From an uncultured Gammaproteobacteria bacterium (GTDB lineage: Bacteria > Patescibacteriota > Microgenomatia > JALYQM01), in contig CAZHTP010000001.1 of assembly GCA_964535655.1 (NCBI GenBank), forward strand, positions 186,862 to 250,861: a stretch of 64,000 nt of DNA. The letters are read 5' to 3'. The position numbers and the translations under genes are program-made. This document shows, piece after piece, positions 20,255-56,566 of the stretch (the first letter of the stretch is position 1; each line of letters begins with the position of its first letter). The notes under the pieces were generated by a model. The model was not told the origin of the DNA and did not search any database. It worked only from the letters and a program-made list of their open reading frames with translations.

Positions 20255-21577
20255 ATGGCTGACGCACGAGTAATAGCAGGTATTGATATCGGTTCTTCAA
20301 AAGTTTGTACGATTATCGGACAAGTTAATGAAGAAGATCATACCGTTAACATTTTAGGGGTTTCTACTTCACCTAGCCGCGGCATACGTAAAGGCCAAGT
20401 TGTAGATATAGTAGCCGCGGCTTCTTCAGTTCTTGAAGGTTTAGAAGCTGCGCAGCGAATGGCAGGCTATACTTTGTCTTCTGCGTACATATCGGTTGGC
20501 GGATCTCATATTCTTTCTCAGAATTCACATGCCGTTGTGGCGATTGCTCACCCTGAAGCAGAAATTACCAACGAAGATGTTGCTCGGGTTAGTGATGCAG
20601 CAAAGGCTATTACATTACCCTCTTCACGCGATATTATTCATGTAATCCCGCGTATGTTCATTGTTGATGGTCAAGATGGTATCAAGGATCCTATTGGGAT
20701 GGCTGGCATACGGCTTGAAGTAGATACTCATATTATTCATGGTGCGACGATTAGTATTAAGAACTTAACTAAGTGTATTAATGACATGAAGCTTGATGTT
20801 GAGTCATTTGTCTTTAGTGGGCTTGCTTCAGCGAATGCTGTTGTAACTGATACAGAAAAAGAGCTTGGTGTCGCGATTGTGGATATTGGTGGCGGAACTA
20901 CCGATATTTGTATGTATGTTGATGGCGCACTTGCTCACTCTGCAGTTTTACCAGTTGGAGCCAAAAATATCACTAACGATATCGCGATTGGCCTTCGAGT
21001 TTCACTTGATGCAGCTGAGCAAATTAAATTATTACTTTCTAAAGAACCTCGATTGTTAGTGGAGCCCTTAGGAAATGTGGTAGGCCATAAACCTTTTGAT
21101 CGTGAGGAACGTAAAAAATTGGATGAAATTGATCTTAAGCCATTCCATTTGGGAGAAGAGTTACAATCGGTTTCCCGTAAATTATTGTTAGAGGGGATAA
21201 TTCGACCACGATTGGAAGAAATTTTTGCTCATGTTGCAATGGAATTTAAAAAGTCTGGGTTTCATCACGCAATCCCTGCTGGTGTTGTTGTATGTGGAGG
21301 AGGAGCGCAGACAGTTGGATTAGTCGAAGTTTGTCGAAAAGTAATGGGATTGCCGACTCGGGTCGGTAACCCGACAAGAGTAACTGGTTTGATTGATGAA
21401 ATCCAAAGCCCTGCTTATGCTACTGCAGTTGGATTGTTATTATACGGAGCAGAGGAAGAAGATTCTGTGGTTGAAACACATCATGGTTTCTCAGTTCCCG
21501 GTATCAGTGTTTTGCGTGAAGGCGGGGAAGGAATGATTTCTCAAGTGATGAAGTGGATAAAAGGCTTCTTACCCTAG
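20255..21577 (+). CDS. ftsA: Cell division protein FtsA
   Basis: Actin-fold phosphate motifs (IAGIDIGSSKV, VDIGGGTTD). The ORF track starts at 20219; the ATG at 20255 follows TTATAGTAT. Confidence 0.9.
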   Translation: MADARVIAGIDIGSSKVCTIIGQVNEEDHTVNILGVSTSPSRGIRKGQVVDIVAAASSVLEGLEAAQRMAGYTLSSAYISVGGSHILSQNSHAVVAIAHPEAEITNEDVARVSDAAKAITLPSSRDIIHVIPRMFIVDGQDGIKDPIGMAGIRLEVDTHIIHGATISIKNLTKCINDMKLDVESFVFSGLASANAVVTDTEKELGVAIVDIGGGTTDICMYVDGALAHSAVLPVGAKNITNDIAIGLRVSLDAAEQIKLLLSKEPRLLVEPLGNVVGHKPFDREERKKLDEIDLKPFHLGEELQSVSRKLLLEGIIRPRLEEIFAHVAMEFKKSGFHHAIPAGVVVCGGGAQTVGLVEVCRKVMGLPTRVGNPTRVTGLIDEIQSPAYATAVGLLLYGAEEEDSVVETHHGFSVPGISVLREGGEGMISQVMKWIKGFLP

Positions 21578-21591
21578 ATACTTGTACTGTT

Positions 21592-22002
21592 ATGGGGACT
21601 TCAGATAACGCATATTCTTACGTTGCATTTTTGGCTTCAACAGTTTATTTTGTTGGGATTTTAGTTGGTCGAAATGAGGAATTAAAACTTAAAATTGAAA
21701 ATGTTTATTCGACTGATTTTGTTTTTTCTTTTGTAAAAGAATTAAAAAAGAAACTAACTGATTCTCAGAATAATAAATTAAGTGATTTAAGTTCTCTGAA
21801 TGTTGCATTTAAGTCTGTATATGATTATTTCTCAAATAATATCTCAGTAGAAATTCTTAGTGCTTTTGATCAAGATTCACTGGAACTGAACTTACGTAAG
21901 GCCATTTCGGTTACTTTACAGGTATTAGAAGGAGAAGAAAGAGATCTCTATAAAAAACAATTATTCGAAATTTATAATAGATATCGCTTAACTGATCTTT
22001 AA
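21592..22002 (+). CDS. Hypothetical small membrane-anchored protein between ftsA and ftsZ
   Basis: A 137-149 aa ORF in very AT-rich DNA, where stop codons should be frequent, with an N-terminal hydrophobic helix (AFLASTVYFVGILVG). I recognise no homology. Confidence 0.4.
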   Translation: MGTSDNAYSYVAFLASTVYFVGILVGRNEELKLKIENVYSTDFVFSFVKELKKKLTDSQNNKLSDLSSLNVAFKSVYDYFSNNISVEILSAFDQDSLELNLRKAISVTLQVLEGEERDLYKKQLFEIYNRYRLTDL

Positions 22003-32057: not shown

Positions 32058-33368
32058 ATGGAAAATATTCCCCCACAAAACATAGAGGCGGAGCAGTCTG
32101 TCTTAGGCGCCTTGTTGTTATCGGCTGATGCAATTGTCGAGGTAGCTGAAATTCTTAAACCGCATCATTTTTATCGAGAAGAGCAGCACGGGACTATTTA
32201 TGCATGCATGATTGATTTATACGAACGTCGTGAACCGATTGATGTGATCACGCTGCAAGAAGAGCTGCGTAGGCGTGAAGCGTATGATTTGGTTGGAGGA
32301 AGTGCATATTTAGCAATGCTGGCATCGGTTGTTCCTACAGCTGCTAATGTTGTCCGTTATGCCAAGATCGTTAAAGATCATTTTACTAAACGAGAGCTGA
32401 TTTCATCGGCAAATCGTATTTCAGAAATGGCGATGTCGCCAACGAGTGATGTTGCAAGTGTTTTAGATCAGGCCGAGCAGTTAGTTTTTCACTTATCTCA
32501 GGAACATACAAATAGTGACTTCGTTCCGATTAGAGATACGCTTGCTGAATCTTTTGATCGGCTAGATGATTTACATAAGAATGCCGGTAAATTGCGTGGC
32601 GTTCCAACAGGATTTCGCGATGTTGACAATAAGCTTGCTGGTCTTCAAGACTCGGCACTTATTGTATTGGCTGCTCGCCCTGGTACCGGTAAAACTGCAT
32701 TTTCTTTAAATATCGCGCAAAACGCGGCAATTCGTTACAAAATTCCGGTTGGTTATTTTTCGTTGGAAATGTCTAAAGAAGAATTAACCGACCGTTTGCT
32801 TTCTATTCAGTCCCTTGTTGATGGTTGGAACATTAAAACAGGTCGATTAGAAGAAACGGATTGGGAGAAGCTGCAGGATGCTATGGGTGAGTTGGCGGAG
32901 GCTCCTCTTTACATTGACGACACTCCTGGTATTTCAATTATGGAAATGCGTACTAAAGCACGACGCTTACAAATGGAAAAAGGGTTGAAATTGTTAATTG
33001 TTGATTATTTGCAGTTGGTACATGGTCGAACCACTGATAACCGTGTGCAAGAAGTTTCGGAAATCTCACAAGGACTTAAAAACTTGGCTCGTGAATTACG
33101 GATTCCAGTGCTTGCGCTTTCTCAACTATCGCGTGCTGTGGAGTCGCGCACTTCAAAGGCACCACAACTTTCTGACCTTCGTGAATCGGGTGCTATTGAA
33201 CAGGATGCTGATGTGGTAATGTTTCTTTACAAAGAAGATCCAGATCAACCGGAATTTATTAAGCTTGGTATAGCCAAGCATCGTTCTGGCGCTATAGGAG
33301 ATATTGATCTAGTGTTTAAGGGTGCCAGGCAACGGTTTTATGGTGTTGATAAAAAGAAGGTTAGTTAA
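32058..33368 (+). CDS. dnaB: Replicative DNA helicase DnaB
   Basis: Walker A ARPGTGKT, DYLQL, SQLSR, and arginine-finger region. Confidence 0.95.
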   Translation: MENIPPQNIEAEQSVLGALLLSADAIVEVAEILKPHHFYREEQHGTIYACMIDLYERREPIDVITLQEELRRREAYDLVGGSAYLAMLASVVPTAANVVRYAKIVKDHFTKRELISSANRISEMAMSPTSDVASVLDQAEQLVFHLSQEHTNSDFVPIRDTLAESFDRLDDLHKNAGKLRGVPTGFRDVDNKLAGLQDSALIVLAARPGTGKTAFSLNIAQNAAIRYKIPVGYFSLEMSKEELTDRLLSIQSLVDGWNIKTGRLEETDWEKLQDAMGELAEAPLYIDDTPGISIMEMRTKARRLQMEKGLKLLIVDYLQLVHGRTTDNRVQEVSEISQGLKNLARELRIPVLALSQLSRAVESRTSKAPQLSDLRESGAIEQDADVVMFLYKEDPDQPEFIKLGIAKHRSGAIGDIDLVFKGARQRFYGVDKKKVS

Positions 33369-33982
33369 TATATACCTTGACATTCACTGTTGGGGCCGTC
33401 CCAGACAGTTTTGCCCGTTTGTAAGTCTACATAAATTTTTCGTCGGTTTTGCATGGTTTCCATATTACAGTAGCTTAATTGTGCAACGATTGCACCTTGA
33501 TACATTACGAGCGTCAATCCGCTGCCTAGATTTTCTCTTTTAGCTATTTCGGATAATTCTTTTTTGCTGATAGTCCATTTGCAATGATACTTGTCCAATT
33601 CACAACTTGGTAGTGCTAAGGGGACATGATTGTTTGCTAGACTTACTTTGGATTGATTTCCATCATTTGAGTAATAAAAAAGATATGTGGGATTCTTTTC
33701 GTATACTTTTCCTGGTAGAAATTCATAGTCTATGTAGCAAAAGGAACTATTTAAATTGCAGCTTTGTGAATCCATTAAATTAATTTCATAATTATTTCTG
33801 AATTCTTTTTCCCCAACAATGCTTGCGATATAGGCGTCTAACTGACTTTTGACTCTAGAGTCGATTTTGGCTGGGAACTTTATTTTAGGGAGTAAGGGGA
33901 ACATTACCAATAGCAATGCTATTATTAGCGGAATCAGTGCAATAATGATTGGTGTTTTGTTTACTTTAGGTAGCTTGCTCAT
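33365..33982 (-). CDS. Hypothetical membrane-anchored protein
   Basis: 205 aa with an N-terminal TM helix and several Cys in the extracytoplasmic part; no recognisable family. Confidence 0.35.
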   Translation of the reverse strand: MSKLPKVNKTPIIIALIPLIIALLLVMFPLLPKIKFPAKIDSRVKSQLDAYIASIVGEKEFRNNYEINLMDSQSCNLNSSFCYIDYEFLPGKVYEKNPTYLFYYSNDGNQSKVSLANNHVPLALPSCELDKYHCKWTISKKELSEIAKRENLGSGLTLVMYQGAIVAQLSYCNMETMQNRRKIYVDLQTGKTVWDGPNSECQGIY

Positions 33983-34153
33983 CTACAGTTAATTTTACAT
34001 CGCAGATTATTTAATTTTCAAGTTGAACACTATTGAGATAATGGATCAATTTTATTCTAGTAATTACTATCAACAACCTCTTGAGTAAAGTTCCTTTGAT
34101 TTGAATTTGACAGACATATAGGAATTGACAACGAAAGCCCTCTGTGATATGCT

Positions 34154-35332
34154 ATGGGCCATATGTCTGAGTTAAATAATGGTTCTTCTTGGTCGCGCGA
34201 GCAAATGATTCCAGAAAAAGGTAAAAGGGAACGGAGGTTGTTACCAATAGCCTTAACAGGATTAGCCCTAGCAAGGTGCGGGTCACTGACCGCTCCAGAG
34301 CCCGCACCGCAGATACAAGCAATCAGTGTCCCAAGCATGCCTACTGCAGAAAGCCGTTCGCCAGATTTCTTGAGGGTGGATAGTCACCCAGGCTTTGAGC
34401 TAGAAGCGCCTTATGACTATTGTCCAGTGCTAGCCGCTTTGATACCGCAGCCAACAGATGCGAGCGCTGAGTCTCCTACAGCAGTTGCAATGACTGAGCC
34501 TGAGGCTAGTGAAACACAAGAATTTATAGGTAATTCTGATGGCATTGCTGCCTGGAGTCGAGAAATTAATCTGAGTAGAATGGTAGGGTATAGACCCGGT
34601 CTTGAGGAACTCCATGTTGCAATTGTTCCTGTGGGGTATTCGAACCCTAGGGCCGAGATGCCAAAATTCCTAGAGTACTTAAATCTTTTTTATGGGGACT
34701 ATCCGATTAATTTTTACTTTACTGACAAAAGTGTGCCTATTGGAATAACTTTTGGATCAGATTCGTCCGCTCGATACACCGATGGGGAAGAACATAAGCG
34801 GGTTGAAAACGCCTTAAACCAGTATGGAAAAACTGATGTGGTTATATACATGACAAATAGTGGAGAAAATTATGGTGATTATGTATACGCCAATCCAGAT
34901 CAAGGTATTTCTGCATCTGCAATAGTAGTTTCCGGGGAACGAGAAGATACGCATGTTGTCCTTCCACACGAGTTGGGCCACTTTGCGTTAGATGATGGAT
35001 ATCATAGTGAGGTAGGTGCGTATTGGGCAGCAAGATCTACAGAGATTTTTACGGACGTGCGAAGGCTTCCTCCTAACGTAGCTACGGTATATAGGCGAGA
35101 TCCTTCTAAATATCCTATATACTCAACACCCGCCACTTGTGGGAAAGACCCTATTTTTCGGTGGAGACCTGATGGGCAATACGACCTGATGTACTATCCT
35201 TACTACAAGTCAAACGGAGAAATAATAGAAGCGCACAGTAAAGGCATTCCGCTCTTAAACCCAATGCAAAAAAGTATATTTGGCAGTGCTGTAGAGGCCA
35301 AAATTGCTGAGAATAAAAGAAAAACGCATTAG
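34154..35332 (+). CDS. Putative secreted zinc metalloprotease-like protein (HExxH)
   Basis: HELGHFALDDGYH motif, an N-terminal hydrophobic signal-like segment, and a GC-rich 5' third that differs from the window's composition. An alternative start is the ATG at 34163. Confidence 0.45.
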   Translation: MGHMSELNNGSSWSREQMIPEKGKRERRLLPIALTGLALARCGSLTAPEPAPQIQAISVPSMPTAESRSPDFLRVDSHPGFELEAPYDYCPVLAALIPQPTDASAESPTAVAMTEPEASETQEFIGNSDGIAAWSREINLSRMVGYRPGLEELHVAIVPVGYSNPRAEMPKFLEYLNLFYGDYPINFYFTDKSVPIGITFGSDSSARYTDGEEHKRVENALNQYGKTDVVIYMTNSGENYGDYVYANPDQGISASAIVVSGEREDTHVVLPHELGHFALDDGYHSEVGAYWAARSTEIFTDVRRLPPNVATVYRRDPSKYPIYSTPATCGKDPIFRWRPDGQYDLMYYPYYKSNGEIIEAHSKGIPLLNPMQKSIFGSAVEAKIAENKRKTH

Positions 35333-35378
35333 CTTTTTTTGTAATAGTATATCGTCTCATTTCACTTAGTTTGCTTTG

Positions 35379-35462
35379 TGCCGAGGGAGGGAGTCGAACC
35401 CTCACATCCATTATAGATATTGGTTTTTGAGACCAACGCGTCTGCCATTCCGCCACCCCGGC
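35379..35462 (-). tRNA. tRNA-Leu (anticodon CAA), type II with a long variable arm; CCA not encoded
   Basis: Folded by hand: acceptor GCCGGGG/CCTCGGC, 3-bp D-stem, anticodon loop CUCAAAA, T-loop TTCGACT. Confidence 0.8.
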
Positions 35463-35544: not shown

Positions 35545-36291
35545 ATGTATCCAATCTTATTTAAAGTCGGTCCAATGGTTATTTATACCTATGGATTTGC
35601 GATTACGATAGCTACTTTAGTAGCAAGTTTCTTGATTTGGCGAAGGGCGCGTAAGCTTTTGTATAACGAAGAGCATATTATCGATATGATTCTGTTTTCG
35701 CTCTTTGTTGCGCTAGTTTTCGCCCGGGGAGTTTATGTTGTATATCATTCTCATCAGTTTGGTTCCGAAATTCTAAAGATTCTACTCGTGACATATTTTC
35801 CTGGACTTGATGGCGTTGCAGCACTTGTTGGTGGACTGCTCGGGTTTTTGGTTTTTTCGTATTTACGACGTTGGAAGCTTTGGCCAATATTTGACTGTAT
35901 TGTTAAAGGAATGACTTTAGGAATAGCTATTGTTATGATGGGAGCTTTTTTCGCCGGAAGCTATGTAGGCACACCGACTCATTCAGGTTGGGGAGTGGTT
36001 TTGCCTGGGTTTACCGAACTTCGACACCCTGTAGCACTTTATTATGCACTCTATAGCTTTATCCTCTTTATAATTTTAGTTTTTGTTGATAAAGTGCGTA
36101 GGCCCGATGGCTTAATTACATCGTTATTTTTTATTATTTTTGGGATAGGGTTGTTTGTTTTCGAATATTTTACCGAAGGCGGAGCAACGCTGTTTGGAGT
36201 TCATTTGACACAGTTTTGGGGAATTGTTAGTATAGTCATTGGAATTCTGTTCATGATACGTGTTCGAAAGGAAAAATATGTTACAACCTGA
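35545..36291 (+). CDS. lgt: Prolipoprotein diacylglyceryl transferase Lgt
   Basis: 248 aa, polytopic. The N-terminal WYG-like start and the RHPVALYYA region (compare RHPSQLYE) fit Lgt. Confidence 0.65.
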   Translation: MYPILFKVGPMVIYTYGFAITIATLVASFLIWRRARKLLYNEEHIIDMILFSLFVALVFARGVYVVYHSHQFGSEILKILLVTYFPGLDGVAALVGGLLGFLVFSYLRRWKLWPIFDCIVKGMTLGIAIVMMGAFFAGSYVGTPTHSGWGVVLPGFTELRHPVALYYALYSFILFIILVFVDKVRRPDGLITSLFFIIFGIGLFVFEYFTEGGATLFGVHLTQFWGIVSIVIGILFMIRVRKEKYVTT

Positions 36292-36664
36292 TGTAGTAAA
36301 AAAGATAAAAGTAAAATTGCAGTCACAAAAAAAAGAATCACTTGAGCGTATTGCTGAATTGGAAAAAACTGACCCATTTAACCTTGATGCGGCGCTAGAT
36401 TTAGTTGATGATCGCACCTCACCCGATGATGAAGCTCAAGTGAATGAGGTTCACGAGCGAGTTGCCTCTCAAGTTGCATCACTACAAAACAGTGTTGCCC
36501 GTATCGAATCAGCTTTAGAGCGAATGGTAAAGGGAACCTATGGGGTTTGTGAGGCGTGTGGAAAAGAGATTGAAGAAACACGTTTAAGTATTATGCCTTT
36601 AGCAAGTTTGTGCTTGGACGATGAAAAAAGTATAGAAAAGCGCGCTAAAAAGATCACCTCATAA
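36278..36664 (+). CDS. DksA/TraR-family C4 zinc-finger protein
   Basis: C-terminal [14 protein letters not shown] four-Cys finger after a coiled-coil. SD AAAGGA lies 6 nt before the ATG at 36278. Overlaps the lgt 3' end by 14 nt. Confidence 0.65.
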
Positions 36665-36669
36665 TATTC

Positions 36670-37137
36670 ATGTATATATATCAGCTGCCACTTTCGTTAC
36701 GAAAAAAAATCTTCTTTTGTGGTGCTGTTTTTTCCATTGTTTTGATTTTAGATCAACTGAGTAAATATTTTGTTATTACGTATACTTTGCTTCCTGTTTT
36801 TTTTAATAACACAATCGCATTTTCTTTACCAATTGCCTGGTATTTACCGTGGCTTTTTTTATTCGTAAGTCTCATTTATGTATCTTTAACAAATAAAGCC
36901 AACTATTTTTCTATTGAGAAATTAGATACTCTCCTAAGTAAAAGGTTGTTATCCGTAGCATTGCCACTTATCGTTGGAGGTGGTATATCAAATATTATAG
37001 ATCGGGTATTTCATAACGGTAGCGTCGTTGATTTTATTGATCTGCGTTATTGGCCAGTGTTCAATTTGGCTGATTCTGCTATAGTTATTGGAGTATTCTT
37101 GATTATTTATCACTTATACCAAAAAAAGGGAGCGTAA
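36670..37137 (+). CDS. lspA: Lipoprotein signal peptidase II
   Basis: [10 protein letters not shown] and [14 protein letters not shown] motifs. Confidence 0.85.
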
Positions 37138-53996: not shown

Positions 53997-54013
53997 CTTT
54001 GTTATTTCCTTCA

Positions 54014-56566
54014 TTACCTTACATTAACGGTAATTTCTTTAGTTGATGTAACATTCTTGTTATCTGTTGCTTCGATTCTAATTTTGTGAGTTCCAGCCTG
54101 CTCAGACTTGAAGTTTACTTGTGTGCTGACGGGAGAGGAGTTGGAACTTCTCAACATGTTGTAATCATCAATATATATCTTCATATTAGCAATCTGTGCA
54201 TCGCCCTTAGGATTGGCATCTGCTGTTAAGTTGAATGTAAACGGTACATTTGCCTGATCTGGAATGTCGCGGATGATGATATCTGGAGCATCTTTTGGAT
54301 TGCCACCAATTGATGAATATCCTCCGAAGGCTCCTCCGTTAGGGCAGTCACCCTGGCAAACACCTGGCTTATTAAATAACTTAAGGTATGGGTCGGTTAG
54401 AATTGCGAACTGTTTATCTTCGGCATCGCAACTGTCGTGTTCAACATCATTGGTTCCTTTACATACGCGAACATTTTGGTATGTAATATCATTCGGTTGT
54501 GGTTCGGTACCCTTAATGAATATCTCAGGGCGAGTGGCGGTTGTGCCGTTACCGGGTCGCATACCGGTTTTTGCATCAATGGCGAGTGGTCCGTTAATTT
54601 CGTCGGGCTTTTTGTACCACTCATCAGGTTTATTATCCACTAACTGGTGCATTATTTTGTTCCAGATTGGTGTTGCACCGGTAACACCAGAAGCAATTGA
54701 CTGGTCCATAACTGCATTATTATTGTTACCGACCCAGGTTCCAACTACATAGGAAGGTGTGTATCCAAATGCCCAGTTGTCTCTCTTTTGGTCGGTTGTT
54801 CCTGTTTTGACTGCGATGTGTTTCCCTGCAATATAAAGCAAACTACGTGGGCCGAAGGCAGGAATGCGTGCATTATCGTCGGACAAGATATCGGATATAA
54901 GATAGGCTATCTCTGGCTTGAATATGCGTTTTCCTGATGAAGGTTGGAATTCTTCTAATACCTTACCTTTTGCGTCGGTGACCTTAATTACTGACACAAC
55001 GTCTTGTTTAACACCTTCATTCGCAAATACAGCATATGCAGAGGTGAGATCAAGAAGCGAGGTTTCTCGACCTCCAAGCGTAAGCGAAAGTCCAACATTT
55101 TGCATTGCTTGTGTTGTTGGTTCCCAGTTTGATATCCCCATTTCATAGGCAGTTTTCATGGTGTCTTTGATGCCATTAGTTGCCAGGGCTTTTACCGCGG
55201 GGACGTTTAAGGATGATCCTAAAGCTGTTCTTGTTTGAACCGGTCCGCGATATTTTCCATCGTAGTTAACTGGTTTATATGGATCTTGACCCGGTCCTGC
55301 GTCAAACTCGGTTTGTACATCTAACCACATGGTTGCGGGCGTATACCCTTTAGTGAATCCAACCGCGTAAGTTATAGGCTTAGTAGCAGATCCTGGTTGC
55401 CTATTACGGGTGGTTACGTTTACTTGGCCGTCGTAATCTTTAGCGAAATAGTCTTTTGATCCAACCATAGCCAAAATTTCGCCGGTTTTAGGATTTAGCA
55501 CAACTGCTGCTCCATTACCTACTTTAGCTTTTGCTAATTTATCTACTTCAGTTCTGACAATTTCCTGGACCTTATTTTGTAAATCTAGGTCAAGAGAGGT
55601 GTAAATGCGTAATCCGCCGGAGGCCACCACTTCTTTTCCGTATTTCTGCTCCATTAGATCTTTTACATAAAGCGTAAAATGAGGTGCTTGTATATCAATT
55701 TTTTGATCGGCGAATTTTATAGAATCCAGCTCTCCTAGCGAAGCTGTTTCTTGCTCTTTCGTGATGTGTTTTTCTTCTCGCATGCGGCGTAAAACATATT
55801 TTGCGCGATTTTTATAGGCATCAGGATATTCTCCAAAAGGCGAGTAATAGGTAGGAGATTGAGGTAACCCCGCTAAAATAGCACTTTCAGTTAGAGTTAA
55901 ATCTTTGGCTGGTTTTCCAAAATAGGTTTGTGCAGCAGTTTCAACGCCATAGGTTGTTCCTCCATACGGAATTTCATTTAAGTACATTTGAAGTACTTCG
56001 TCTTTACTGAATCGTTTATCTACTTGAATAGCTAAAATCAATTCACGCAATTTACGAGTTGGCGTTCGTTCTCCTCCAACTAGCGTGTTTTTGACAAGCT
56101 GCTGTGTAATAGAGGAGGCACCAATTAATCGATGATACCGAATTAAGTCGTATAGAATACGAAAATATCCTTCAACGGCAAACCCTTGATGTTTATAAAA
56201 ATCTTTATCTTCAGTGTCAATTGTAGCGTTAATGAGATCTTTGGGGATTTTGTCAAGGGTAACCAGTTCACGATTCTGTTTATCATAGACACTATAGAGC
56301 GTTTTTCCGTTGCGGTCCATGATTTTTGTGGCTTGGTCGACTGAACGATCTTTTAACGTGGTTGGACTGGGAAGATCCCTGGCAAACCAGGCAAAAACTA
56401 TTATAATTACTATAACACCTAGTAAGAAAAGTCCAAAAAATACACTGATTAGTACTGCGGTGATAGTTAGAATTTTTTGTTTTGTCGTGAGTTCTACTTT
56501 GTCTTTTGGGCCTTTTTTATCGAGTTTGGCGCGTCTTGAGGAAAATCCATTTTTTAAATCTTGCAT
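54014..56566 (-). CDS. Class A penicillin-binding protein (bifunctional GT51 transglycosylase/transpeptidase) with a C-terminal extension
   Basis: GT51 motifs EDKDFYKHQG and GASSITQQL; transpeptidase motifs SATKP, SLN, KTGTT; an extra C-terminal tail of about 150 aa. Confidence 0.9.
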   Translation of the reverse strand: MQDLKNGFSSRRAKLDKKGPKDKVELTTKQKILTITAVLISVFFGLFLLGVIVIIIVFAWFARDLPSPTTLKDRSVDQATKIMDRNGKTLYSVYDKQNRELVTLDKIPKDLINATIDTEDKDFYKHQGFAVEGYFRILYDLIRYHRLIGASSITQQLVKNTLVGGERTPTRKLRELILAIQVDKRFSKDEVLQMYLNEIPYGGTTYGVETAAQTYFGKPAKDLTLTESAILAGLPQSPTYYSPFGEYPDAYKNRAKYVLRRMREEKHITKEQETASLGELDSIKFADQKIDIQAPHFTLYVKDLMEQKYGKEVVASGGLRIYTSLDLDLQNKVQEIVRTEVDKLAKAKVGNGAAVVLNPKTGEILAMVGSKDYFAKDYDGQVNVTTRNRQPGSATKPITYAVGFTKGYTPATMWLDVQTEFDAGPGQDPYKPVNYDGKYRGPVQTRTALGSSLNVPAVKALATNGIKDTMKTAYEMGISNWEPTTQAMQNVGLSLTLGGRETSLLDLTSAYAVFANEGVKQDVVSVIKVTDAKGKVLEEFQPSSGKRIFKPEIAYLISDILSDDNARIPAFGPRSLLYIAGKHIAVKTGTTDQKRDNWAFGYTPSYVVGTWVGNNNNAVMDQSIASGVTGATPIWNKIMHQLVDNKPDEWYKKPDEINGPLAIDAKTGMRPGNGTTATRPEIFIKGTEPQPNDITYQNVRVCKGTNDVEHDSCDAEDKQFAILTDPYLKLFNKPGVCQGDCPNGGAFGGYSSIGGNPKDAPDIIIRDIPDQANVPFTFNLTADANPKGDAQIANMKIYIDDYNMLRSSNSSPVSTQVNFKSEQAGTHKIRIEATDNKNVTSTKEITVNVR

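Follow-up and report, generated by a model that had tools for sequence, protein, structure and literature searches.

A metzincin-type peptidase-like protein of an unnamed family, encoded in a variable slot between dnaB and tRNA-Leu(CAA) of a Patescibacteria genome

Genes and features of the locus

Patescibacteria have tiny genomes and depend on other cells or on external nutrients, and the proteome of their surface is mostly unannotated. The stretch of DNA considered here, referred to as the window, comprises 64,000 nucleotides of a contig assigned to this group (CAZHTP010000001.1, positions 186,862 to 250,861, assembly GCA_964535655.1) and carries, between the replicative helicase gene dnaB and a gene for tRNA-Leu(CAA), a variable segment with only two open reading frames (ORFs), which are divergently transcribed. 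One codes for a membrane-anchored protein of 205 residues, denoted TM205, and the other for a protein of 392 residues which, judged by its family alignment and a structural model, is a metzincin-type peptidase-like protein of an unnamed family. Both ORFs, the HExxH motif of the larger one, dnaB, the tRNA gene and a peak in guanine-plus-cytosine (GC) content had been pointed out in a preliminary description of this DNA, and all of them are present where that description had placed them. The features of the locus are as follows.

32058 to 33368, plus strand: dnaB (replicative helicase), conserved left boundary; Pfam DnaB_C E = 1e-99, DnaB N-terminal E = 1e-34
33370 to 35376: variable, lineage-specific segment (cargo slot) from the dnaB stop codon to the tRNA 3' end, delimited by breaks in blastn homology
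33365 to 33982, minus strand: TM205, 205 residues, predicted single-pass membrane anchor and six-Cys ectodomain; ORF with one homolog (P0003)
33983 to 34153, between the genes: divergent intergenic region of 171 bp, one promoter-like site per strand
34154 to 35332, plus strand: gene for the 392-residue, predicted exported, metzincin-like zinc metallopeptidase; ORF, family alignment, profiles, AlphaFold2 model, Foldseek
34154 to 34282, plus strand: predicted N-terminal export signal, residues 1-43; sequence and hydrophobicity
34250 to 34560, plus strand: GC-rich segment (GC 0.527), covering the last part of the signal peptide and a disordered linker rich in Ala/Pro/Ser/Glu
34409 to 34423, plus strand: P-Y-D-Y-C motif, residues 86-90; Cys column kept in 32 of 36 family members
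34511 to 35329, plus strand: catalytic domain, residues ~120-392; model confidence above 90 over most of it, Foldseek
34967 to 35002, plus strand: putative zinc-binding motif H272-E-L-G-H276-F-A-L-D-D281-G-Y283; family conservation
35138 to 35140, plus strand: codon of C329, a beta-ribbon residue of the lower subdomain; Cys kept in 33 of 36 family members
35189 to 35191, plus strand: codon of M346, candidate Met-turn methionine; Met in 35 of 36 members
35378 to 35462, minus strand: tRNA-Leu(CAA), conserved right boundary with its 3' end towards the cargo; ARAGORN, Rfam tRNA 57.7 bits

A 1525-bp Logan contig from SRR8893623 (L001) has the same arrangement, in which the protease gene is identical and TM205 is represented by its first 33 codons, and this independent assembly therefore confirms the local assembly of the window and indicates a sample that contains the organism.

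A rare family built around an HExxH motif

A word-indexed search of 5.8 billion proteins with the 392-residue protein returned only the protein itself, and the same search with the family profile returned only one relative (P0032). An exhaustive HMMER search of 1.84 billion representative sequences gave 35 relatives, with E-values from 6e-25 to 9e-4 and identities of 25-36% over residues ~80-385; together with the window protein these make up the 36 members to which the family counts refer. The family is rare, with one to four sequences per cluster in the nine clusters that were looked up, and its members are unnamed or called “hypothetical”. They lie in varied chromosomal contexts, with no tRNA gene or dnaB nearby; one of them (locus L180), which has a Pro/Thr-rich linker of its own, has a sortase-like gene and a surface protein of the LPKTG type as neighbours.

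Three residues of the HExxH motif, H272, E273 and H276, are invariant in all 36 members, and G161, F187, G241, L279, D281, Y283, E297, C329, M346 and Q372 are nearly so, with D281 and Y283 each present in 34 members. Ahead of the catalytic domain, the motif that includes C90 is conserved in the form P-[YF]-D-Y-C. The consensus of the family around the motif is HExGHxLGLxDGY, which has metzincin spacing and offers an Asp as candidate third ligand, and M346 sits in N/D-[IL]-M, 65 residues past D281, which is a plausible distance for a Met-turn. In the 33 members with HExxH, the acidic residue stands at motif position 11 in 23 cases, at position 12 in five and at position 10 in two, the window protein being one of the latter.

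The corresponding segment of the window protein, HELGHFALDDGYH (residues 272-284), had been described as HExxH followed by seven residues and a His, with non-metzincin spacing. This is literally correct, but the column of H284 is not conserved, for which reason H284 was rejected as a third zinc ligand; the candidate is instead D281, followed by Y283. The spacing, too, is unusual in the window protein, which is one residue shorter, and not in the family, the consensus of which has the canonical metzincin form.

The active site appears to have been altered more than once within the family. Three members, P0013, P0019 and P0026, have HExxxH in place of HExxH (HEEEGH, HEIVGH and HEITGH, respectively), and P0004 is a tandem duplication, the first, N-terminal copy of which has no HExxH, which in sequence terms suggests repeated decay or repurposing. 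A degenerate DNA pattern for HExGHxLGLxDGY retrieved 120 metagenome loci, among which were four true family members, and had no hit in viral contigs. More than 100 of the proteins found in this way (loci L086-L205; for example L098:2198-3367, L118:4441-5673 and L158:9397-10824), mostly of 390-540 residues and on contigs with a GC content of ~0.55-0.6, have the exact motif but match the hidden Markov model (HMM) of the family over ~40 residues only, and a peptidase Pfam domain was absent from seven of seven that were sampled; one or more further unannotated metzincin-like families seem to exist.

Predicted fold of the catalytic domain

AlphaFold2 applied to the single sequence gave a predicted local distance difference test (pLDDT) of 31, which is unusable; the fold was taken from the alignment-based model, with a predicted template modelling score of 0.75 and pLDDT above 90 over most of residues 120-392. 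In that model, a beta-sheet is followed by a backing helix, the active-site helix (residues 266-275), two helices at 289-293 and 307-315, a beta-ribbon (323-336) and a C-terminal helix (370-391). The HExxH motif with its Glu lies in the active-site helix, and the modelled succession of five-stranded sheet, backing helix, active-site helix and C-terminal helix fits that of the metzincins. The placement of the motif in a fold other than that of a protease, which had been named as a finding that would speak against a protease, is accordingly not what the model predicts.

Sequence profiles and structure searches point in the same direction. The best matches of the family profile are 4DF9/9QDI (2.4e-6), 3P1V (8.8e-6) and the IgA protease of T. 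ramosa (9EKK/9QDH, 5e-5), the similarity being confined to ~55 residues, followed by the weaker ADAMTS-5 (3e-3) and snapalysin (1C7K/4HX3, E = 0.009). The Pfam family Peptidase_M64 (PF09471) is touched by 17 of the 36 members at E < 0.1, with a best E-value of 8.6e-8; the window protein does not match it even at E = 1, and the individually listed relatives remain below its gathering threshold of 26 bits, e.g. at 22 bits. Foldseek placed the M64 protein BF3526 (9QDI, 1.4e-7) first, ahead of the IgA peptidase, or IgAse (1.4e-5, for 9EKK, to 1.9e-4), followed by BaP1 (2W12, 3e-4) and ADAM33 (1R54, 4e-4) and then by archaemetzincin, astacins and matrix metalloproteinases. All matches with E < 0.01 are metzincins (M64, adamalysin, ADAM, archaemetzincin), with modest TM-scores of 0.24-0.43, and no viral match was significant. 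On the strength of the model, the 392-residue protein is metzincin-type peptidase-like and a member of an unnamed family, of which the igalysins are the nearest characterized neighbours.

Export signal, linker and cysteines

In the N-terminal region of the protein, the basic KGKRERR precedes a hydrophobic segment (LLPIALTGLALA), which is followed by R-C42. In 11 of the members, the Cys of a canonical lipobox stands in the alignment column of C42; hydrophobic N-terminal segments are found family-wide, and the genome encodes both lgt and lspA. The A-L-A ahead of R41 would suit cleavage by signal peptidase I, and M1, M4 and M18 are candidates for the start. The mature protein would contain just two cysteines, C90 and C329. 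Both are found in 31 members, and two of the three full-length members without the first also lack the second (hypergeometric p ~ 0.015, uncorrected for phylogeny). This paired loss speaks for a C90–C329 disulfide, which would put the protein outside the cytoplasm, rather than for a free cysteine switch, a role of C90 that was considered and judged less likely for the same reason; C90 is therefore the probable disulfide partner of C329. Taken together with the predicted fold, these features bear out the initial view of a secreted HExxH protease-like protein, in the form of a zinc-metallopeptidase-like protein that is predicted to be exported.

Proposed mode of action and the possibility of an inactive enzyme

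The proposal that we consider fairly likely is that of a zinc endopeptidase, tethered to the cell surface or secreted, which sits on a flexible stalk and is encoded next to an unrelated membrane protein in a variable chromosomal slot, its activity being inferred. In this model, the protein would be exported by its N-terminal signal and, with a Cys at the lipoprotein position, would be either tethered to the membrane or released. A disordered Ala/Pro/Ser/Glu linker of ~80 residues, the codons of which create the GC peak discussed below, would hold the catalytic domain off the membrane. In this domain of ~270 residues with a metzincin fold, H272, H276 and D281 would bind the catalytic zinc, with E273 acting as the general base, Y283 stabilizing the transition state and M346 forming the Met-turn under the metal site, while a C90–C329 disulfide would anchor the N-terminal PYDYC segment on the lower subdomain. 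The protein would probably act in extracellular or surface endoproteolysis, e.g. in the acquisition of peptides or amino acids or in the processing of surface or host proteins. The suggestion that the protein could be an effector relevant to an episymbiotic lifestyle finds no support, as nothing links it to such a role.

It has to be noted that several observations weigh against this proposal. The 392-residue protein on its own has no match in Pfam, NCBIfam, PHROGs, PADLOC or the PDB sequences. Its motif, H1 E2 L3 G4 H5 F6 A7 L8 D9 D10 G11 Y12, is one residue shorter than the consensus and has Leu, in place of Gly or Asn, at position 8, so that it departs from the extended metzincin signature HExxHxxG/NxxH/D; with the motif shortened and the Gly missing, zinc binding by D281 is not assured. 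Furthermore, the pLDDT of the model drops to 68 for residues 281-290, and L-A-R-C42 has an Arg at position -1 of the lipobox, which is non-canonical when compared with [LVI][ASTVI][GAS]C.

The same features could be read as those of a dead pseudo-protease with, for example, a function in surface binding or adhesion, in which the short HELGH-FALDDGY without a hinge Gly would misplace the third ligand. We regard this as unlikely. The rarity of an acidic residue at position 10 and the replacement of the Gly at position 8 would be in line with it, as would the tolerance of the family for degenerate sites, seen in the three HExxxH members and the HExxH-less duplicate domain of P0004. The window protein, however, has kept H272, E273, H276, D281, Y283, M346 and E297, all of them. 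A further member, P0025, shares the short spacing with a Glu, suggesting that the loop can adapt, and other members without Gly at position 8 (which have Ala or Asp there) retain everything else; in the igalysins as well, the metzincin spacing is known to vary by one residue (PMC12237041).

A recurrent cargo slot at the dnaB/tRNA-Leu(CAA) junction

The flanks of the two genes are conserved. The stop codon of the protease ORF is separated by 45 bp from tRNA-Leu(CAA), beyond which lie lgt, a dksA/traR-type zinc-finger gene, lspA, a response regulator gene and a pseudouridine synthase gene. The relatives closest by DnaB identity are the loci L002 and L003 (96% each) and L004 (86%), followed by Woesebacteria, Curtissbacteria, Woykebacteria and others at ~60-66%; the lineage belongs to the Patescibacteria and lies close to the Microgenomates. 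In the first three, the order is kept as a gene of the metallo-beta-lactamase fold, dnaB, gap, tRNA-Leu(CAA), lgt, dksA, lspA, response regulator and rluD. The nucleotide homology detected by blastn ends at the dnaB stop codon or shortly ahead of it (33369 in L002 and L003, 33355 in L004) and restarts at 35377/35378, which is the 3' end of the tRNA gene.

What lies in between differs from one relative to the next. L002 has a 453-residue secreted protein in the slot, L003 an NAD-dependent epimerase and L004 a 160-residue hypothetical protein, and neither TM205 nor the protease was detectable by tblastn and the family HMM in any of 80 related dnaB loci. Of 71 informative relatives, 56 have a tRNA-Leu(CAA) gene no more than 6 kb after dnaB, with a gap that ranges from 4 bp to 4.4 kb (18 relatives with <100 bp, 23 with 100-999 bp and 15 with 1 kb or more). 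Cargo in other relatives includes a Na/Ca exchanger, SET-domain, serine-hydrolase and radical-SAM proteins, and surface proteins with Ig, fn3 or carbohydrate-binding (CBM) domains. These sharp breaks in homology, the unrelated cargo of each relative and the variable gap together show that the junction is a recurrent slot for insertion or replacement, in which the two window genes are lineage-specific cargo.

Possible agents of this turnover are the IS200-like Y1 transposases found in the slot of three relatives (L029:6295-6984, minus strand; L057:11541-12077, plus strand; L066:11320-11970, minus strand; Pfam Y1_Tnp, E-values of 3e-9 to 4e-7) and a LAGLIDADG homing-endonuclease-like gene in that of another (L013:13055-13732, minus strand).

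The gain of the two genes has to be weighed against their presence in the ancestor and subsequent loss or replacement in the sampled relatives. The closest of these are divergent, their flanking DNA being only ~77% identical, which counts against the interpretation as acquired cargo in that the event is thereby not datable and gain not strictly separable from differential loss; the native-like codon usage of both genes would also suit an ancestral origin. On the other side stand the different, unrelated cargo of each of the three close relatives, the gap of less than 100 bp in 18 of 56 loci, which suggests that the junction was ancestrally empty, and the family members located elsewhere, in unrelated contexts. 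We consider differential loss quite improbable on these grounds, and the segment is a variable, probably acquired one next to the tRNA 3' end.

Some further observations concern the junction. The 453-residue slot protein of the closest relative (L002:11602-12963, plus strand) has an N-terminal hydrophobic signal and no Pfam match and is another unannotated exported protein. Among loci L002-L081, 35 relatives have the tRNA gene beside dnaB on the minus strand and 21 have it on the plus strand, from which it follows that the tRNA gene was inverted relative to dnaB during the history of the lineage, and gaps of at least 1 kb are commoner where its 3' end points towards dnaB (12 of 35) than otherwise (3 of 21). 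Across the tRNA, lgt, the dksA/traR-type gene and lspA form a conserved lipoprotein-maturation cluster (35545-37137); a functional link between the protease and lgt/lspA was rejected, as the cluster is kept in relatives without the protease and the adjacency appears coincidental.

TM205 and its relationship to the protease

TM205 has a hydrophobic helix at residues ~10-30, with a best 15-residue Kyte-Doolittle window of 3.48 at residues 12-26, and six cysteines at positions 75, 82, 127, 134, 172 and 201. Searches of Pfam, NCBIfam, PHROG and PADLOC gave no match to it. The only known homolog, P0003, shares 52% identity and six of six cysteines with it, so that TM205 is a real gene; its product is predicted to be a membrane-anchored ectodomain, probably with three disulfides.

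It could be supposed that TM205 and the protease form a functional pair, acquired as one module, in which TM205 is the membrane partner, the inhibitor or a substrate of the enzyme. The two genes are adjacent within the same variable segment, both products are predicted envelope proteins, and the genes diverge from a 171-bp region that has promoter-like sites on both strands, namely TTGACA-17-TATGCT at 34125-34153 on the plus strand (10/12, TG) and TTGAAA-18-TAAAAT at 34021-33992 on the minus strand (10/12). The count of such sites in this region, however, is not above chance (eight versus 7.1 expected from shuffles), and they are only suggestive for that reason. No homolog of TM205 was found near any other family member (loci L082-L085), and the sole homolog lies on a contig of 1.9 kb. 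A functional pair is therefore very unlikely in our view. The -10 elements end 1 nt before the ATG at 34154 and 10 nt before the ATG at 33982, so both genes could have leaderless or near-leaderless mRNAs, or else the protease could start at M4 or M18.

Base composition and the question of a tRNA-targeted island

The preliminary description had taken the two genes for a compositionally distinct, horizontally acquired island at a tRNA gene. The GC peak at the basis of this proposal is real: the 300-bp window starting at 34201 has the highest GC content of the 64 kb (0.523, compared with a mean of 0.397 and standard deviation of 0.034; z ~ 3.7). TM205, with a GC content of 0.358, and the remaining two-thirds of the protease gene towards its 3' end, with 0.42, do not share it. 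Only the 1-kb window that covers the linker has a raised tetranucleotide distance (z = 2.9); values in the rest of the block are average (z from -0.8 to +0.9).

The cause of the peak was assessed by calculating the GC content expected from the amino-acid sequence and the synonymous codon choice in the window's 57 other long ORFs. For the GC-rich segment, the expectation is 0.508 and the observed value 0.526, and the excess is located at codon positions 1 and 2 (GC1 0.615, GC2 0.577), the shift at synonymous sites not being significant (GC3 0.385 versus 0.322 expected, z = 1.4). Consistent with that, Ala, Pro, Ser and Glu account for 51% of residues 43-136; residues 1-82 have pLDDT below 50 in the alignment-based model and are predicted to be unstructured. 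An origin of the linker by tandem-repeat expansion was rejected, as no tandem repeats were found in it. Since the observed GC content is close to the amino-acid expectation and GC3 is not significantly shifted, the peak is an effect of the protein composition of the Ala/Pro/Ser/Glu linker and no sign of foreign DNA. The block as a whole is not distinct, and a GC peak within a gene should be checked against the amino-acid composition before horizontal transfer is invoked. For the protease gene as a whole, the GC3 excess is the largest among 59 window genes at z = 2.0, which is about what chance would produce as the top value of that many genes, while TM205 has z = 0.8.

Elsewhere in the window, the strongest tetranucleotide deviation (z up to 4.1, GC content ~0.45) is at 54001-55250, inside the minus-strand ORF 54014-56566, and the plus-strand ORF 21553-22002 has the lowest GC3 (0.181 versus 0.299 expected, z = -3.2). 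Judged by synonymous-site composition, atypical DNA is more readily suspected in the latter than in the two-gene block.

The segment does not contain an integrase, recombinase or transposase, and neither ORF matches a recombinase family in Pfam, NCBIfam or PHROG or a phage or defence family in PHROG or PADLOC. A repeat search and blastn-short, aimed at the direct repeat of the tRNA-Leu 3' end that had been proposed as the mark of an attachment (att) site, found none at the boundary; the best candidates are a 9-nt exact match and a 14-nt match with 12 identities inside the protease coding sequence. What remains of the island is its variability: uniform composition together with conserved synteny would have spoken against it, and the flanks are indeed syntenic and the synonymous composition native-like, but the cargo is absent from the slot in relatives. 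The least probable account, then, is that of an integrase-mobilized element with foreign, GC-rich DNA recently inserted into the 3' end of tRNA-Leu(CAA), to which the abutment of the cargo on that end, the resumption of homology exactly there, the variable slot with mobile genes in some relatives and the top GC3 excess of the protease gene would be congenial, but which is contradicted by the missing recombination gene and direct repeat, by a GC peak explained by amino acids and otherwise average tetranucleotides, by a GC3 excess no larger than chance would give, and by the lack of any PHROG match or viral-contig match to the motif.

Wider interpretation

A more far-reaching reading, which we put forward as improbable, is that the proteins represent a separate metzincin family that bridges snapalysin- and igalysin-type zinc sites and that the junction is a dedicated, integrase-independent cargo slot of the Microgenomates type. 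Within this reading, four to six residues could be tolerated between the second His and the Asp, judging from the aligned members, and the disulfide-tethered PYDYC segment might serve as a latency device that controls entry to the cleft. The slot could be serviced by IS200/RAYT-like Y1 transposases or by homologous recombination between the conserved flanks.

Irrespective of that, a fold class and a probable, inferred catalytic mechanism can now be assigned to a formerly hypothetical surface protein family of Patescibacteria. The dnaB/tRNA-Leu(CAA) junction, in turn, is a conserved place where accessory surface genes are exchanged and so offers a handle on cell-surface diversification and peptide supply; the hotspot is useful for comparative purposes.

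Comparison with known systems

Like tRNA-associated islands and integrative elements, the locus has conserved flanks and, immediately past the 3' end of a tRNA gene, variable cargo that is absent from relatives. It differs from them in being a 2-kb segment with two genes, with neither an integrase nor att repeats nor a synonymous-site signature.

Among the peptidases, the adamalysins, ADAMs and reprolysins (M12B) have the same metzincin topology of the upper subdomain, and a few family members give weak matches to the Reprolysin Pfam domain. The third ligand of these enzymes is a His, however, where the family has a candidate Asp; the window protein contains no disintegrin or ancillary domain, and the scores are far below those of M64. 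Snapalysin (M7) and the Asp-type metzincins are similar in another respect, in that the family consensus has the spacing and the Asp of HExxHxxGxxD, followed by a Tyr (PMC12237041). Snapalysin is nevertheless a minimal domain of 132 residues, compared with the ~270 residues of the present domain with its long igalysin-like segment and N-terminal Cys-tethered segment, and its profile score (E = 0.009) is not significant for membership.

The igalysins of family M64, i.e. the IgA peptidase of Thomasclavelia ramosa, Bacteroides BF3526 (9QDI/4DF9) and 3P1V, give the best profile and fold matches. They share with the family the HExxH active-site helix, an Asp as third ligand and a Tyr two residues further on (Y283 here). 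The segment from this Asp to the Met is long in both, with 65 residues here and 58 in IgAse, from D550 to M608, and its modelled short helices and beta-ribbon are as in IgAse (PMC12237041). The Bacteroides members are also lipoproteins according to the name given by their depositors. The zinc motif of the igalysins, on the other hand, is HExxHxxxGxxD, with an extra residue before the Gly (PMC12237041, PMC12402451). This motif is absent from the window protein, the Asp of which stands two positions earlier, and only the five members with an acidic residue at position 12 (of 33) come to the igalysin position. The structural zinc site of IgAse, moreover, is formed by a Glu that follows the Asp ligand and by three Cys from the Met-turn and the C-terminal helix (PMC12237041, PMC12402451), whereas in the window protein D281 is followed by G282 and neither the Met-turn nor the C-terminal helix contains a Cys, which leaves the Cys3/Glu site missing; the lectin, wrapping and Ig-like accessory domains are absent as well. 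Because these features, namely the extra residue, the Glu and the three Cys, are missing, the protein is not filed as M64.

The family is absent from Pfam, and no mention of it was found in the two igalysin papers (PMC12237041, PMC12402451) or by a literature search. The fold class and the general mechanism are thus known already, and what is new is the unannotated family itself, together with a zinc-site spacing unlike that of the nearest known families, by which the family widens the range of spacing known for metzincin zinc sites.

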